Source of the DNA: Acidobacteriota bacterium
GTDB taxonomy: Bacteria > Acidobacteriota > Polarisedimenticolia > J045
Direction: 5' to 3'
Length of the DNA stretch: 63,575 nt
NCBI GenBank assembly: GCA_027021395.1
Contig: JALUUK010000112.1
Location: forward strand, 1-63,575
The notes below the pieces were generated by a model. The model ran no database searches. It saw only the letters and a program-made list of their open reading frames with translations, and had not been told where the DNA came from. The translations under genes and the position numbers were made by a program. Below, one piece after another: positions 1 through 63,575 of the stretch (its first letter is position 1; the number at the start of each line of letters is the position of its first letter).

Positions 1-103
1 GTCCGCTGCCGGGGCGCCAGCATAAAGCTTTCTCCCGGCTTAGTTTTTGGCGCATTCCGCGAGCGGCTGGGCTGGCAAGCATGCCCACCGTTGATCGCGC
101 TCC
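1..103. repeat. Terminal overlap (1..103 = 63473..63575): circular or terminally redundant genome, unique length 63472 bp
   Basis: The first 103 nt (gtccgctgccggggcgccagcataaagc...gatcgcgctcc) recur exactly as the last 103 nt. The break point falls inside the last unit (R7) of the repeat array. Confidence 0.95.
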
Positions 104-129
104 GCCTAGCGGTGGCGGAATTGTGTGGT

Positions 130-1431
130 TCATTGGTTGTCCTCCTCTGCGAGCGGTTCCGAGGTTTTCTGCGCCTCGTCAACGCTCGCACCGACGAGGC
201 GTACCGAGATCCCCTTGGGCTCGGCTGCGTTGATGATCGCCTGACGCAGCTGGTCCCAGGGGAATGAATTGACGAACCGCCGGTCCCTGTCATCGTAGGC
301 GATTTCGGCGAACCGCCGGCGGTCCGCATAGCCGACCACGTGTGCCGCAATCTCTGAGATCCAGCTGCGCATCCGCCTGTGTTGCTTGCCGACCATCGCG
401 ATGCGCCGGCTGGCGAATCTCGGCACTGGTCGTTGCTCGGCTTTGGTGTCATCGGAGAATCGGTTCAGTCGCCGCGTGTGGTGCAGGATGGCGCCTCGGA
501 TTCTGCGGATGTGGTCCGCGTGCTCGATCCAGAGGCGTTCGTCCTTCTCGTTCAATGCGACCAACAGACTATCACTATCTGTCTTTACAAACAACGTCCC
601 ATGCCGTTTTTGTTCATCTCGCCGCGGTAGCCACGCGACGATCTTCACGACCACCTCCCAGAGCGCCCGCTGTCCGCCTGCATCGCGTTCGGTGATCTGT
701 CGGCTGGACTGTTGCCCATTGCGTCCAGACCGATCCGGTCCGCCGGCACGTCGTCGGTAGATGGATAGCTCGGCGGGTATCGCATCACCGCGGGCGATTG
801 CCTCGAGCGATCGACGCTGGCGTTTGTACCGCGGACCTGCGACGAGGCGCAGGCGCCACCGTTGCCCTGCCAGGGGGACTGACACGATCAGGTCTCGCCG
901 ATCGTCGTCCGTGATTTCGAGTGACCAGTTGGCAGCCGGTATCGGAACGGGCGCCGGATATTTTGCCCGCGGCAGGTGCTCATCGGAAAGCCATAACACC
1001 TTGTAGCGTCTGGCTTTCCATTTCAGCTTTGCTTGCTGTTCGGTCGCTGCCACGGTGACAGACGAGATTGCCGGGAACCGCTCGCGTGCTTCGGGGTACA
1101 GGTAGATCGTCGGCATTGGCGGCAGTTTTTCCATGCCGGGCTCACGCCGCACATCGCGAGCGTACAGCTCATCCACCAGCCAGTTCCAGAGCCGCGTTTG
1201 ATCCGACCAAGCGTCACGCAGCGCCGCGCGGAACTCCGCCCAGGTCGCGTCGAGAGGTTTTGCCACACGCATCGTGATCGCGCGTAGCACGTAGCGAGCC
1301 TGCCAGCACTGGCGGCACAGCACGGCGTCCCCGTGCCGTTTCCACCCGCGAGGCAGTCTCAGTCCGCGCTTGGTCGGCGTCGTCTTGTGCTCGTCCCAGC
1401 ATGACGAGCATCTGATGATATGATCGGTCAT
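130..1431 (-). CDS. TnpB/Cas12-like protein, C-terminally truncated (no Zn finger or RuvC-III), with extra N-terminal zinc ribbon; candidate RNA-guided DNA-binding protein
   Basis: 433 aa from ATG 1431, with GGAGG about 11 nt upstream. The track ORF reaches 1539 but would overlap the upstream gene by 100 nt. By-eye match to the TnpB order: [19 protein letters not shown] (N-term strand plus helix), [26 protein letters not shown] (WED/REC), [14 protein letters not shown] (RuvC-I-like), [25 protein letters not shown] (lid helix), [35 protein letters not shown] (RuvC-II region). The protein ends about 20 aa later. N-terminus carries CSSC-x27-CRQC. Confidence 0.6.
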   Translation of the reverse strand: [433 protein letters not shown]

Positions 1432-3159: not shown

Positions 3160-3224
3160 CATCCTCCCGGCGGCATGTATTCACCCCGCGCAGCCGCCGC
3201 CAGAGCTGCGCGGGAAACTCGGAC
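3160..3224 (-). repeat. Intergenic GC-hairpin repeat, copy C
   Basis: Perfect 10-bp stem cccgcgcagc (3185-3194) / gctgcgcggg (3205-3214), flanked by catcctcccggcggca and gaaactcggac. Confidence 0.85.
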
Positions 3225-3450: not shown

Positions 3451-3513
3451 CACCTCCCGGCGGCACGTATTCACCCGCGCAGCCGCCGCCTAGGCTGCGC
3501 GGAAAACTCGGAC
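3451..3513 (-). repeat. Intergenic GC-hairpin repeat, copy D
   Basis: Perfect 10-bp stem ccgcgcagcc (3475-3484) / ggctgcgcgg (3493-3502), flanked by cacctcccggcggcac and aaaactcggac. Confidence 0.85.
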
Positions 3514-7300: not shown

Positions 7301-7337
7301 CGTTTTTAGGTGTCACCCATGACACCTAAAATCAGGT
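7299..7337. repeat. 38-bp palindromic element, copy 1 (inverted relative to 62581..62618)
   Basis: ccgTTTTTAGGTGTCAcccaTGACACCTAAAAtcagg, arms at 7304-7315 and 7320-7331. Its reverse complement differs from the second copy at 2 positions. Confidence 0.85.
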
Positions 7338-45353: not shown

Positions 45354-45850
45354 GATTCCACCTCGCGTTTCTCAAGCACGACGCGCCTCGTGCACACGAA
45401 TTCCTCATAATCAAACAAAACGAAGCCAGAGCACGCCACTCGGAACACATCGCCTTTGCGGTGCCTGGTCTCATCCTCCAGCTCAGGTGATGCGCGCAAT
45501 CCTCGATACCCCAGTTTTATCGGTGCGTCGTAGGTGTGGATGTCGCCGGGTTTCGGTGGAATGCATCTTCCGTCGCGGCAGCAGGATTCCTCGCCGAACA
45601 CCCAGTAAGCCAGTACTGGCGTTGAGTGGTCGATGTAGTGCAAGCCGCTGTCGCAGTCGCAATCGTCACTGCAAATGTAATTAAAACCATCACCATCACC
45701 ATCGCCGTGGCCATCGTCGCTGTAGCGATCGCCGTAGCCATCACCGTCGCCGCAGCCGCATCCACCGCCGTCGCCGCAACTGATGACATCAACGCGCCCG
45801 TCACCACGCGACACGCATTCACGCCAGTACTCAAGGTCAATGACATCCAT
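45350..45850 (-). CDS. Gly/Asp/Cys-rich low-complexity protein, paralog 1
   Basis: 166 aa from ATG 45850 (MDVIDLEY). It shares with its neighbour the N-terminal box DLEYxxECVSRGDG and the C-terminal domain LHYIDHSTPVLAYWVFGEES..PKPGDIHxYDAPIK..FRVACSGF..FVCTRRVVLEK. Confidence 0.6.
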   Translation of the reverse strand: MDVIDLEYWRECVSRGDGRVDVISCGDGGGCGCGDGDGYGDRYSDDGHGDGDGDGFNYICSDDCDCDSGLHYIDHSTPVLAYWVFGEESCCRDGRCIPPKPGDIHTYDAPIKLGYRGLRASPELEDETRHRKGDVFRVACSGFVLFDYEEFVCTRRVVLEKREVES

Positions 45851-46400
45851 TTTGCTGCCCAGCCTTCTCAAGTACTACGCGCCTCGTGCACACGAATTTG
45901 TCATCGCCGATCACAATGAACCCAGAGCACGCGACGCGGAACGCAACGCCAGATCGGTATCCGAATGCATCCTCCAGCTCAAGTGATGCGTGCAGCCCGC
46001 GGTGACACCGTTTTATCGGCGCGTCGTAGACGTGGATATCGCCAGGTTTCGGTGAAAGGCTCATGCCGAGGTGGCTGTAGGATTCCTCGCCAAACACCCA
46101 ATACGCCAGTACTGGCGTGGAGTGGTCGATGTAGTGCAAGCTGACACCGCCACCGCGACCATCTCTTTCGCCGTAACAGTCACCACGACCGCGGCCACAT
46201 CCGAAGCCGTCACTGTATCCGTAGCCATCACCGTAACCATCACCGTCGCCGTAACCAAAATCACCGCCGTAACCATCACCGGCGCCATAGCCGAATCCAC
46301 CGCCGTCGCCGTCACATCCACCGCCGCGATTATATCCGCTGCCATAGCCGTCACCACGCGACACGCATTCACACCCGTACTCCAGGTCTAGGACTTCCAC
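45837..46400 (-). CDS. Gly/Asp/Tyr-rich low-complexity protein, paralog 2
   Basis: GTG 46400 with GGAGGAGG just upstream (the track ATG is at 46415). The central part is about 90 aa of GYG/GDG repeats. The C-terminal domain is as in 45350..45850. Confidence 0.6.
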   Translation of the reverse strand: MEVLDLEYGCECVSRGDGYGSGYNRGGGCDGDGGGFGYGAGDGYGGDFGYGDGDGYGDGYGYSDGFGCGRGRGDCYGERDGRGGGVSLHYIDHSTPVLAYWVFGEESYSHLGMSLSPKPGDIHVYDAPIKRCHRGLHASLELEDAFGYRSGVAFRVACSGFIVIGDDKFVCTRRVVLEKAGQQNGCH

Positions 46401-46696
46401 TTTGCCTCCTCCCATGCCTTGACGGCATCATCGGTGCATTGGATGATCTTCGACACGTCGAACACGATCATGTCCACGCGCGGTCCGACCCTGGATCGAC
46501 CGATCGGCCCGACGACGGCGAGCGAGTAGTTGCCCTCGCAATCCGGCATTCCGGTTGCCGCCCGCATGAAGCAGTGCCGCGCCCGCGACAGCCTGATGAT
46601 CTTCCTGTCGATGTCGATTTCCTCGACGTATCCGAAGTACATGCCACGGTTCGAGTCGAAGACCACAACTGGCGTTCCTTTTTCTGGTACGTTCAT
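46388..46696 (-). CDS. hypothetical protein
   Basis: 102 aa from ATG 46696 with GGAGGA 6 nt upstream. Confidence 0.55.
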   Translation of the reverse strand: MNVPEKGTPVVVFDSNRGMYFGYVEEIDIDRKIIRLSRARHCFMRAATGMPDCEGNYSLAVVGPIGRSRVGPRVDMIVFDVSKIIQCTDDAVKAWEEAKWKS

Positions 46697-62580: not shown

Positions 62581-62618
62581 CCTGTTTTTAGGTGTCATGG
62601 GTGACACCTAAAAACAGG
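62581..62618. repeat. 38-bp palindromic element, copy 2
   Basis: CCTGTTTTTAGGTGTCAtgggTGACACCTAAAAACAGG, a 17-bp perfect inverted repeat around a 4-nt centre. It is the reverse complement of 7299..7337 apart from 2 mismatches. Confidence 0.85.
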
Positions 62619-62970: not shown

Positions 62971-63015
62971 ATCATCCTCCGCAGTTTTTGGGTGTTCTAT
63001 CCCATCATTTTGCTC

Positions 63016-63484
63016 CGCATCGTCCAAACGTTTGTCTGTCCGCTGTCGTGCTGTACATTTTCACCCGCATGTGGCGAATGGGCTACGACCGCAGCGACTA
63101 AACGTTCGTTCATCTGCTGCCTGTAGCCGCAGTCGATTGAGCAAATCTGGTCCGATATCCCGCAACGCCCAAACGCCCGTTTGTCCGCTGCCGGGTGTTG
63201 TGCATCCTTGGAATGGGAGTGAACGGCAATCCCGCGTCGTCCAAACGTTTGTCTGTCTGCTGCCGGCTTTTCGACTGCTATGAGGCGGCAGACGAACGGT
63301 GCCCCCGCAGCGTTCAAACGCCCGTTTGTCCGCTGTTGCCACTCGCGACTTCGACTCGCTGAAGCTTGGGAGCGTACATGCAGTTGATAAACATTCGTTT
63401 ATCCGCTGCCGTACTGGCTAATGTGGAATGACCGCTAGGGCCTGCTCTCCCGCAGCATCTAAACGCTCGTTTGTCCGCTGCCGG
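63016..63484 (-). CRISPR. CRISPR-like array: 7 degenerate ~34-bp hairpin repeats, 71-74-bp period, unique 37-40-bp spacers; co-oriented with and ~117 nt downstream of the TnpB-like gene
   Basis: Repeat starts (+ strand): 63016, 63090, 63161, 63233, 63306, 63379, 63451. Consensus cgcagcgNNcaaacgNNcgtttgtccgctgccgg. On the minus strand the outer stem is GCAGCG/CGCTGC and the inner stem AAACG/CGTTT. The spacers show no similarity to each other. A possible decayed eighth unit lies near 62944. No cas1, cas2 or cas4 is present anywhere in the genome. Confidence 0.45.
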
Positions 63485-63575
63485 GGCGCCAGCATAAAGC
63501 TTTCTCCCGGCTTAGTTTTTGGCGCATTCCGCGAGCGGCTGGGCTGGCAAGCATGCCCACCGTTGATCGCGCTCC

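Follow-up and report, generated by a model that had tools for sequence, protein, structure and literature searches.

A probable RNA-guided DNA binder: a truncated, Cas12f-like phage protein encoded next to a CRISPR-like array and a structured RNA

The DNA analysed here (the window, a contig of 63,575 nt) carries a gene which a first-pass annotation, made from the letters alone, had read as a phage-encoded TnpB/Cas12-like protein ending after RuvC-II and neighbouring a multi-spacer array. The question which this locus raises is what a protein of this kind may do on a phage, and whether the repeats belong to it. The contig is a complete phage genome, the ends of which are identical. Since positions 1-103 recur at 63473-63575, the array (seven repeats and six spacers) lies directly 3' of the gene, across the contig junction, and its neighbourhood with the gene is thereby upheld. 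The features of the protein gene, and the overlap which closes the circle, are as follows.

130..1431, minus strand: gene for the 433-aa Cas12f-like protein (ORF, AF2 model, Foldseek, profile against the PDB); stop codon at 130-132
1306..1410, minus strand: N-terminal zinc ribbon, aa 8-42, C8-x2-C11-x27-C39-x2-C42, enclosing the basic RLPRGWKR (alignment, AF2)
571..594, minus strand: RuvC-I-equivalent strand LFVKTDSD, aa 280-287 (profile alignment with LGVDMGE of OsCas12f)
283..303, minus strand: RuvC-II-equivalent strand IAYDDRD, aa 377-383 (profile alignment with TIQMEDL)
133..192, minus strand: disordered acidic C-terminal tail, aa 414-433, with a conserved PLA motif (alignment; pLDDT 46-70)
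63473..63575, no strand: terminal overlap, 100% identical to 1-103 (repeat family D4)

A ribosome-binding site (GGAGGA) is located 9 nt 5' of the ATG of the 433-aa ORF, and this start agrees in the alignment with the N-termini of 40 homologs, whereas that of a longer, 469-aa ORF does not. The same 40 homologs are the source of all conservation counts given below. The family is large (at least 352 homologs; 919 clusters at 50% identity) and occurs in phages and prophages as well as on some bacterial chromosomes; most members measure about 380-460 aa, as judged from the 40 aligned sequences and the best 150 listed. No homolog of the protein was found in 50,697 isolated phage genomes (INPHARED).

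When the single protein was compared with curated libraries, nothing significant was obtained from Pfam (zf_Tbcl, E=0.18), PHROGs or NCBIfam, and neither Pfam nor PHROGs holds a model for this family. The NCBIfam model NF040570 (guided_TnpB, cut-off 100 bits) scored no more than 15 bits (E=0.011), its match being confined to aa 353-414, the Pfam TnpB domains OrfB_IS605 and OrfB_Zn_ribbon were not detected in the 433-aa protein, and six of the 40 homologs gave weak matches to TnpB profiles (best E=2e-5). Homology is evident only from the family profile and from the structural model. The AF2 model (pLDDT 89.9) retrieved AsCas12f (E=4e-18), SpCas12f1 (5e-14) and the natural dCas12f 9n9c (2e-13) in Foldseek, and the top 18 PDB matches, with E-values from 4e-18 to 3.5e-11, were all Cas12f or dCas12f. 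Cas12k (2e-8), Cas12m (7e-7) and TnpB (2e-6 to 3e-10, and 3e-6 for ISDra2 TnpB) were retrieved as well, and viral TnpB-like hits were also among the matches. The family profile, searched against the PDB, aligned with OsCas12f 9nzq (E=3e-6 over profile positions 108-386), with AsCas12f (about 1e-4) and with dCas12f 9n9c (E=2e-3, 14% identity). As modelled, the 433-aa protein therefore has a Cas12f fold, with a WED-REC-RuvC order closest to that of Cas12f structures. The TnpB/Cas12 ancestry proposed in the first-pass annotation is borne out by both approaches, and the lack of fold similarity which it had named as grounds for abandoning the idea is not what Foldseek found. The block-by-block likeness to TnpB drawn there is real as a similarity; ISDra2 TnpB is not, however, the closest relative (3e-6, compared with 4e-18 for AsCas12f).

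The protein ends early. Its last strand, SVRLV (aa 409-413), corresponds to the fifth RuvC strand (beta-5), and the polypeptide stops 20 aa beyond it; all 40 aligned homologs share this end point, about 20 aa past the equivalent strand. The C-terminal CxxC..CxxC finger, the ZnF/TNB domain and the RuvC-III motif are all absent from the 433-aa protein. The profile alignment covers residues 15-362 of the 365 in the 9n9c chain, which indicates that the published dCas12f stops at the same structural point. Within the part of RuvC that is retained, K283 occupies the position of the catalytic Asp of RuvC-I (Arg in 31 and Lys in three of the 40 homologs, Asp in none), and D380 that of the RuvC-II Glu, followed by D381, which is conserved in 39 of 40. 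The truncation after RuvC-II, the missing finger and RuvC-III, the Asp-Asp at the Glu position and the loss of catalytic residues had all been noted in the first reading, and each of them withstood comparison with the family. Because both the RuvC-I Asp and the entire ZnF/RuvC-III segment are missing, we propose that the protein binds without cutting.

Alternatively, it might still be an enzyme, in which a rearranged acidic site cleaves DNA or RNA, or processes pre-crRNA. Four acidic residues (D306, D328, E332 and D381) are invariant or nearly so in the 40 homologs, and this conservation leaves room for an active site which they may form; catalytic-site rearrangements that preserve activity have been documented in TnpB/Cas12 clades (PMC10691335), and some processing activity would be needed, since the array lies inside an operon. 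Set against this are the replacement of the RuvC-I Asp by Arg or Lys, the loss of the whole RuvC-III helix, and the finding that the published dCas12f, which shares this truncation, has no DNA cleavage activity (PMC13472631). We consider retained catalysis clearly improbable.

At its other end, the protein carries an extra element. The CxxC-x27-CxxC ribbon recognised at the N-terminus in the first reading is genuine: its four cysteines are kept in 37-40 of the 40 homologs, it is modelled as beta-hairpins at pLDDT 92-97, and it precedes the WED domain, the alignments with AsCas12f and dCas12f beginning only after profile position 51. This bears on the possibility that the protein is an RNA-guided recruiter, not a simple roadblock, which would bring to its target a factor of host or phage origin (RNA polymerase, a sigma factor, a protein of the replisome or of recombination, or a nuclease acting in trans), as dCas12f does with sigma-E. 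Such a role would suit the ribbon, which contains the invariant RLPRGWKR and is lacking from AsCas12f and dCas12f, and the short conserved acidic (E/T)PLA(E) at the C-terminus, which is carried on a disordered linker and resembles a docking peptide; moreover, dCas12f, the closest published truncated relative, acts by recruiting sigma-E (PMC13472631). The gene neighbourhoods speak against it. Across 31 loci there is no conserved partner protein gene (the best neighbour cluster occurs in four), no rpoE-like or sigma-factor gene is present among the annotated neighbours, and no conserved HTH partner was seen in the neighbourhoods of family loci; the partner would need to be a host protein. We regard recruitment as unlikely. 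Since no partner gene is conserved, the module appears to consist of the effector and its RNA. There was also no transposase neighbour at the annotated loci, the 433-aa gene sitting in phage operons, and cas1 and cas2 were absent within 6 kb on either side in three Pfam-annotated loci.

The first-pass annotation had found no continuation of the protein downstream of the stop codon. This is correct: the 116 nt past the stop codon contain no conserved reading frame, and what is conserved there instead is a structured RNA. The elements 3' of the gene, all on the gene strand, are listed here.

13..129, minus strand: leader with a structured scaffold RNA of about 118 nt, a candidate tracrRNA, with helices H1, H2 (outer and inner), H3 and H4 (covariance model, covariation)
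63014..63484, minus strand (gene strand): CRISPR-like array of seven repeats and six spacers, S1-S6
63484-63449, 63412-63377, 63339-63304 and 63266-63231, minus strand: array repeats 1-4
63194-63159, 63123-63088 and 63049-63014, minus strand: array repeats 5-7

A covariance model seeded with 18 loci matched the window at 3-120 on the minus strand with 115 bits. Each of the 36 homolog loci searched, 18 of them outside the seed alignment, contains the RNA downstream of the gene, without exception on the strand of the gene and in most cases immediately 3' of it. Compensatory changes were observed in 26 of the 28 scaffold pairs. In the scaffold alignment 81% of the paired cells can pair, compared with 60% after shuffling and 32-45% with the partners slid; the unfitted alignment gave 75% against 61%. 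Rfam contains no known RNA family matching the leader or the array. In two homolog loci (L001 and L002) an ORF of 45-47 aa directly follows the gene; we rejected it as a protein, since the window and L001 do not have it in the same frame, whereas conservation is seen in the nucleotides and the base pairs. The apparently empty 116-nt stretch 3' of such genes deserves annotation as an RNA gene.

The scaffold passes directly into the array. Its 3' end pairs into repeat 1 (P5, 6-8 bp) in 18 of 18 loci, and it terminates in an anti-handle, identical to the 5' end of repeat 1 and complementary to the 3' ends of the repeats, which on sequence grounds is a candidate tracrRNA anti-repeat. The 3' half of the repeat ends in ...GCUGCGGG(A), abutting the spacer. 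In the window array, repeats of 36 nt alternate with unique spacers of 35-38 nt at a period of 71-74 nt, so that the defining pattern of at least three constant-length repeats with unique spacers of constant length is present. The window repeats are only 61-81% identical to the reference copy (five copies, compared over 47 nt, at 62-81%), which is unusual for an active CRISPR array; near-identical repeats occur in homolog loci (10 of 10 identical in L002, nine of nine in L016 and six of six in L026). What the window repeats share is structure: all seven fold as hairpins, the energies of which sum to -94.9 kcal/mol when read on the gene strand and to -68.3 kcal/mol when read antisense, and in the repeat helix, compared over the loci, G-U pairs are more frequent than A-C pairs. 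No promoters or terminators were found in the scan of the array region.

The linkage of gene, scaffold and repeats is family-wide. Repeat arrays with a period of about 72 nt are present in 17 of the 31 homolog loci for which the gene and usable downstream sequence were available; they lie on the gene strand, start 73-205 nt beyond the point where the protein match ends, immediately behind the scaffold RNA, and, together with the scaffold in all 36 loci, they set aside the objection, anticipated in the first reading, that homologs might consistently occur without adjacent repeats. Spacers in the homolog loci measure 34-41 nt in 104 of 106 cases, with a mode of 36. In three loci (L010, L013 and L027) the arrays are built of mini-units, which retain only the 3' 12 nt of the repeat, as a short motif at irregular spacing. 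The mini-units occur exclusively on the gene strand (15:0 and 31:0), and their handles pair with the scaffold-adjacent anti-handle at -18 to -21 kcal/mol, compared with about -10 for shuffled handles. The handle and anti-handle pairs covary locus by locus, and some chromosomal members carry a single guide.

The irregular spacing of the short motif in these three loci resembles that of binding-site clusters, and the window array sits in the early/replication region, near genes for ERF and a helicase. One might therefore suppose that the protein binds the repeats directly as DNA, these being iterons or a partition or origin cluster, and that they are not guide RNAs. We give this the least credence, and hold it to be extremely improbable: the repeats preserve pairing, through compensatory and G-U changes, and not sequence; every motif is on the gene strand; unique spacers in a 36/36-nt architecture are the mark of a CRISPR array; and the fold of the protein belongs to an RNA-guided effector.

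The spacers gave no indication of their targets. Those of the window have no protospacer elsewhere in its own 63-kb genome, which offers no support for self-targeting or autoregulation, and the last 20 nt of the leader, which adjoin repeat 1 on its 5' side, likewise had no match elsewhere in that genome. Comparison of 106 spacers with 38 loci yielded only chance-level matches, and no protospacers were present in the 50,697 isolated phages of INPHARED. Exact scans of IMG/VR returned nothing, or only the arrays themselves, and a scan of JGI metagenomes gave five 20-mer matches, of which none extends and the number of which equals chance expectation. The single guides of loci L030-L032 had no match in the adjacent RND efflux operon within the 6 kb compared. 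The GC content of the spacers (0.58, compared with 0.60 for the genomes) is not clearly AT-shifted, and composition therefore lends no support to promoter targeting. An absence of targets in the databases searched would agree with the view that the dead effector and its array are a counter-defence decoy, which does not target DNA and instead soaks up the crRNAs or tracrRNAs of host type V systems or otherwise hinders host CRISPR; inactivated Cas proteins encoded by phages have been proposed as anti-CRISPRs, e.g. the II-C2 Cas9 (PMC12669027). A decoy would require neither diverse unique spacers nor their tight length distribution, and the family possesses its own co-evolving scaffold and repeats, with handle and anti-handle covarying in each locus, as well as chromosomal single-guide members. 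This explanation is, in our opinion, very improbable.

The last third of the DNA-cutting site is missing and the gene is followed by a structured RNA and a CRISPR-like array; the product is therefore probably an RNA-guided DNA binder. The explanation which we favour, and consider probable, is a phage-borne, nuclease-dead type V-F (Cas12f-like) effector with its own guide RNAs, which binds DNA without cutting it. From the features described above we infer RNA binding, DNA targeting, the absence of cleavage and a biological outcome along the following lines. A single minus-strand operon transcript would carry first the protein gene, next the scaffold (about 118 nt) and last the seven repeat-spacer units. 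The 5' half of each repeat would act as a built-in anti-repeat for its own 3' half, leaving a crRNA with the handle at the 5' side and the guide at the 3' side, in Cas12-like orientation. The scaffold would most likely serve as a tracrRNA-like guide body, acting in cis on the first unit and in trans on the rest. The effector, probably dimeric like Cas12f, would bind the guide RNA and be directed to spacer-complementary DNA, where its binding would block transcription or replication; the targets would most likely be competing mobile elements or host genes. As no target was found, a repressor function is something that we can only infer.

A more far-reaching interpretation, which we put forward tentatively and regard as doubtful, is that the family represents an unnamed and very large phage branch of type V, with a scaffold acting in trans, crRNAs that can shrink, gain of spacers without Cas1-Cas2, and recruitment of a host factor. 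The crRNA units would then be reducible to a handle of 6-12 nt plus a short guide, the mini-unit loci representing the reduced form, and the zinc ribbon and acidic PLA tail would recruit the host factor. If this were true, temperate phages would possess a programmable regulator of host or rival-element genes which goes beyond a roadblock.

If the favoured explanation of a nuclease-dead, guide-directed DNA binder is correct, soil and freshwater phages and prophages harbour a very abundant, unnamed family of natural RNA-guided DNA binders of about 400 aa, and the list of natural "CRISPRi"-type systems (Cas12m, Cas12c, TldR, dCas12f) extends to phages with multi-spacer arrays. The graded series seen within one lineage, from full hairpin repeats through single guides to minimal handle-plus-guide units, bears on the interconversion of omega RNAs, tracrRNAs and CRISPR repeats. 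The protein might also be of use as a compact programmable DNA-binding scaffold.

How does this module compare with known systems? The protein lacks the D-E-D triad and the zinc finger between RuvC-II and RuvC-III by which TnpB is recognised; it also differs from TnpB in that there is no IS element or TnpA context, and a scaffold and array take the place of the one omega RNA that overlaps a tnpB gene at its 3' end. TldR proteins, to which the first-pass annotation had pointed, are likewise miniature, nuclease-dead and truncated members of the TnpB lineage found on temperate phages, some of them prophage-encoded, where they act as RNA-guided transcriptional repressors, by the logic which we also propose here (PMC10705468, PMC13418256). 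However, TldR derives from TnpB, not from Cas12f. It has a linked cargo gene and a single omega-RNA-like guide, the host target of which is fixed (the promoter of fliC or oppA); here we find a diverse array of six spacers, no target and no linked cargo, and hence not the single guide against a host promoter that characterises TldR. The nearest relatives are instead Cas12f and natural dCas12f.

Cas12m (type V-M) and Cas12c, which are borne on plasmids and prophages, resemble the module, as we interpret it, in array-guided DNA binding without cleavage in conflicts between mobile elements, and are most likely its functional analogues. They differ in being larger (about 600 aa or more) and in having a RuvC which, although mutated, is structurally complete and used for crRNA processing; the structural match to Cas12m is also weaker (E about 7e-7). 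The Cas12f nucleases (AsCas12f 8j12/7wju, OsCas12f 9nzq and Un1Cas12f 7l48) provide the best structural and profile matches, with the same WED-REC-RuvC order, and share an adjacent CRISPR array, 36-nt repeats and an array-adjacent structured RNA of tracrRNA size. In contrast to them, the catalytic triad is not intact here, the TNB/zinc-finger domain and RuvC-III are missing, the repeats are self-complementary hairpins and no adaptation genes were seen nearby.

The remaining comparison is with the natural dCas12f of Flagellimonas taeanensis (PDB 9n9c; Hoffmann, Wiegand et al., Nature 2026, PMC13472631). In sequence the two are only remotely related (profile E=2e-3, 14% identity). The present protein has the additional N-terminal zinc ribbon and acidic PLA tail, it lacks both a conserved HTH partner and the rpoE partner which shares an operon with dCas12f and encodes a sigma-E with a CTD extension, its guides are drawn from a multi-spacer array and not from single gRNAs, and it occurs in phages and prophages of Planctomycetota and Acidobacteriota-type hosts, as opposed to Bacteroidota chromosomes. 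What they have in common is the Cas12f fold at miniature size (365 aa, and 433 aa here), the C-terminal truncation at the same structural point, without ZnF/TNB and RuvC-III, and a structured guide scaffold encoded beside the gene. Since truncated dCas12f beside arrays (PMC13472631) and phage-encoded TldR (PMC10705468) have both been published, the claim that a phage-borne protein of this type next to an array would be a new configuration is weakened. The study of dCas12f also mentions a separate cluster of such proteins that neighbour CRISPR arrays, and for which covariance placed gRNAs upstream of the arrays (PMC13472631); the arrangement of gene, scaffold and array in our phage matches what is described for this cluster.

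Positions 1-103 of the window are identical to 63473-63575, as revealed by a comparison of repeats within it. The unit is therefore a circularly closed molecule of 63,472 bp, and the window is a complete phage genome, which encodes a large terminase, a portal protein, a DNA helicase, an ERF recombinase and a DHH phosphoesterase. The Cas12f-like gene starts 7 nt past the stop codon of the preceding gene and has its own ribosome-binding motif, which places it in a long minus-strand early operon. Since the contig is circular, the repeat array proposed in the first-pass annotation could be located directly 3' of this gene, across the junction.

130-1431, minus strand: Cas12f-like gene (433 aa), GGAGGA upstream
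129 to 1, then from 63472, minus strand (gene strand): region 3' of the gene with a CRISPR-like array of seven 36-nt repeats (consensus CCGGCAGCGGACAAACGnnCGUUUGnnCGCUGCGGG) and six unique spacers of 35-38 nt
1930-1985, 2821-2877, 3168-3224 and 3457-3513, minus strand: four intergenic elements of ~57 nt
7302-7336 and 62584-62618: a perfect hairpin, GUUUUUAGGUGUCA...UGACACCUAAAA, present twice
45369-46415, minus strand: pair of paralogous genes in tandem

Each ~57-nt element contains a 9-10-bp GC-rich hairpin (CCGCGCAGC...GCUGCGCGG) with no U tract, and lies just 5' of the RBS of a small gene in the operon whose last gene is the Cas12f-like one; these elements may be processing, stability or antitermination sites. 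The perfect hairpin resembles a bidirectional terminator; on the gene strand, its copy at 62584-62618 comes ~400 nt after the array. The paralogous genes share a 300-nt repeat at 77% identity and hold periodic repeat runs of 6, 12, 18 and 36 nt.

As a single sequence, the 433-aa protein had no significant match in Pfam, PHROGs or NCBIfam, the sole lead being guided_TnpB (15 bits against a cut-off of 100). The family is nevertheless large: at least 352 homologs were matched at 90% clustering, none of them bearing a functional name or Pfam domain, and an exhaustive scan yielded 919 family clusters at 50% identity, 727 of them at E<=1e-10. Most homologs (the 40 aligned and the best 150 listed) are ~380-460 aa long. 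A family profile and an AlphaFold2 model built from the alignment of 40 homologs (confident, with mean pLDDT 89.9 and pTM 0.75) were compared with the PDB, where Foldseek returned type V effectors only.

Matches of the family profile and of the AlphaFold2 model in the PDB
Profile, 9nzq (OsCas12f): E=3e-6, almost whole protein aligned
Profile, 8j12, 8j3r, 7wju and 8dzj (AsCas12f): E ~1e-4, two stretches, N-terminal WED-REC and RuvC-II
Profile, 9n9c (natural dCas12f): E=2e-3, chain 15-362 of 365
Foldseek, AsCas12f: 4e-18
Foldseek, SpCas12f1: 5e-14
Foldseek, dCas12f 9n9c: 2e-13
Foldseek, Un1Cas12f: 8e-12
Foldseek, ISFba1 TnpB: 3e-10
Foldseek, Cas12k: 2e-8
Foldseek, Cas12m: 7e-7
Foldseek, ISDra2 TnpB: 3e-6

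Among viral models, the structural matches were TnpB-like "transposases". Taken together, these comparisons show that the likeness to ISDra2 TnpB, pointed out in the first-pass annotation, is real, yet the nearest relatives of the protein are Cas12f and dCas12f.

The catalytic site is incomplete. In the profile alignment LGVDMGE of OsCas12f (RuvC-I) faces LFVKTDSD, with K283 at the Asp position, a column that holds Arg in 31 of the 40 homologs, Lys in three and Asp in none. At RuvC-II, TIQMEDL aligns with EIAYDDR, which confirms the Asp-Asp noticed earlier at the Glu position (D380, followed by the near-invariant D381). All five strands of the RNase H sheet are retained in the model (279-283, 290-293, 299-303, 376-380 and 409-413), after which the chain ends with a 20-residue acidic tail of low confidence. 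The stop after RuvC-II is no peculiarity of this phage: all 40 aligned homologs lack both the TNB/zinc-finger domain and the RuvC-III helix, and a short acidic tail closes every one at the same point. According to the profile alignment, the C-terminal truncation of the published dCas12f (PMC13472631) falls there too.

The other end of the protein carries the N-terminal CxxC..CxxC ribbon described previously, which opens every member of the alignment. The first 45 residues are modelled as a zinc ribbon (C8, C11, C39 and C42; pLDDT 92-97), with an invariant motif, RLPRGWKR, between the Cys pairs. AsCas12f and dCas12f, which align only from the first WED strand onwards, have no equivalent of it. 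D306, D328, K330, E332 and R371 are also invariant in the family. The ribbon and the acidic tail suggest that the protein makes extra contacts, to the scaffold RNA or to a protein partner. The disordered tail (window 133-192, aa 414-433) holds a conserved short linear motif, (E/T)PLA(E/x), that resembles a docking peptide for some partner. About 40% of the aligned homologs share an insertion of ~28 residues, modelled with low confidence (window 640-760, aa 225-264), which the others lack.

Between the stop codon and repeat 1 lie 116 nt of non-coding sequence with conserved pairing, in agreement with the initial observation that the protein does not continue there. A 45-47-aa ORF called after the gene in two homolog loci was rejected, since its frame differs in the window. 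The region is 111-128 nt long in 14 of 18 loci, and its 118-nt core measures 116-122 nt in all 18. In a MAFFT alignment of these loci, analyzed with a manually derived structure (H1, outer and inner H2, H3 and H4), 75% of cells were paired, compared with 61% after shuffling and 33-42% when the partners were slid, and 21 of the 28 pairs showed compensatory changes. A covariance model built from this alignment found one copy in the window (3-120, minus strand, 115 bits). Each of the 36 homolog loci searched, 18 of them outside the seed alignment, has one or more copies 3' of the gene and on its strand; some loci have two or three, and L027, L013 and L033 carry two to four. In the model-fitted alignment of 41 distinct sequences, which itself leans towards the structure, 81% of cells are paired and 26 of 28 pairs covary. 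A sixth helix, P5, is formed by a leader element ending in GGG, which pairs with the junction CCC and the first bases of repeat 1 (6-8 bp in 18/18 loci; the off-diagonal mean is 4.6 bp); together with H4 it gives a predicted pseudoknot. No Rfam match was obtained for the region 3' of the gene.

The repeats of the window are unusually divergent (five grouped copies share 62-81% identity with the reference over 47 nt), and all seven fold into the same hairpin. Folding is better or equal on the gene strand in 7/7 repeats (summed MFE -94.9 vs -68.3 kcal/mol for the antisense), and across loci G-U pairs far outnumber A-C pairs in the repeat helix. This strand bias and G-U excess point to an array read as a gene-strand transcript whose pairing is under selection.

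Arrays of homolog loci share this layout, starting directly past the scaffold with a period of 71-75 nt (10 identical repeats in L002, nine in L016, 17 units in L011) and spacers tightly confined to 34-41 nt (mode 36). The repeat sequence varies by locus; nearly all repeats end in ...(C/U)UGCGGG or ...UUCGGG. Some spacers of the same array are variants of each other, 87-100% identical over 24-36 nt (1 and 4 in L019, 7 and 8 in L011, 2 and 4 in L008), as if two alleles of one target were covered or units had been duplicated. Three loci carry reduced, mini-unit arrays with irregular 8-60-nt spacers.

L010:5180-5520, gene strand: 15 mini-units
L013:5330-6500, gene strand: 31 mini-units
L027:3290-4250, gene strand: many minimal ...YUGCGG units, amid which lie three scaffold copies

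Mini-units of L010 and L013 consist of the 3' 12 nt of the repeat plus 8-60 nt, and occur exclusively on the gene strand (15:0 and 31:0). The parts of the repeat kept in the three loci are its 3' 6-12 nt (GGAAGCUGCGGG, GGUCACYUCGGG and YUGCGG). In L010 and L013 the sequence just past the scaffold is complementary to the handle, i.e. the 3' part of the repeat that abuts the guide (-18 to -21 kcal/mol, vs ~-10 for shuffled handles).

None of the spacers tested yielded a target in the phage's own genome, in the other fetched loci or, by exact-match scans that would miss diverged protospacers, in isolated phages and IMG/VR; a similar scan of one JGI metagenome gave five 20-mer matches, none of which extends, a count equal to chance expectation. 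It is therefore unlikely that the array spacers repress the genome of this phage itself, which leaves rival elements or host genes as candidates. Neither cas1 nor cas2 was present near the gene in annotated loci. Three chromosomal loci from Bryobacteraceae and Solibacteraceae MAGs have another arrangement, in which the gene directly follows an HlyD-AcrB RND efflux operon and precedes the scaffold, a single repeat hairpin and a single putative guide.

L030:1678-7347, efflux-linked chromosomal locus
L031:1656-7540, efflux-linked chromosomal locus
L032:1628-7335, efflux-linked chromosomal locus

These guides begin with UCG(C/G)AAUCA(G/A)G, and in L031 a putative tRNA gene comes next; no guide matched the adjacent efflux operon within the 6 kb compared.

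The proposed module would thus comprise an effector gene, a tracr-like scaffold ending in an anti-handle (a stretch complementary to the handle), and handle-guide units. Each window repeat carries both parts, an anti-handle as its 5' half and a handle as its 3' half, and so resembles an engineered sgRNA, where a loop connects anti-repeat and repeat; the guide lies 3' of the handle, as in Cas12 crRNAs. The protein would bind the scaffold and repeat RNAs, be directed to complementary DNA and bind it without cutting, because neither the RuvC-I Asp nor RuvC-III is present and dCas12f, truncated at the same point, is cleavage-dead. The likely outcome would be silencing of the target's transcription or replication, of which Cas12m, Cas12c and TldR are established examples. 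The gene has no conserved protein partner nearby, and in L003 portal and terminase genes flank a solitary gene-plus-array cassette of opposite orientation; the module thus behaves like an autonomous accessory cassette.

Several precedents exist for such a system. The dCas12f proteins described by Hoffmann, Wiegand et al. (PMC13472631) have lost part of the RuvC site through C-terminal truncation. Most pair with sigma-E to drive RNA-guided transcription; a distinct cluster lies near CRISPR arrays, and its gRNAs, detected by covariance, map upstream of these arrays. The gRNAs of this cluster sometimes target promoters of efflux cassettes (PMC13472631), which is echoed by the efflux linkage of L030-L032. 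Altae-Tran et al. (PMC10691335) list V-U groups near Cas12f that are inactivated and have omega-RNA-like arrays, and phage-encoded TldR repressors are known (PMC10705468, PMC13418256). A phage-borne family combining this zinc ribbon, scaffold and array is not described in the literature compared. The module is best regarded as a variant of a published kind: truncated dCas12f proteins, a cluster of them near CRISPR arrays, have already been reported, and the phage-borne form with zinc ribbon, scaffold and array may be new.
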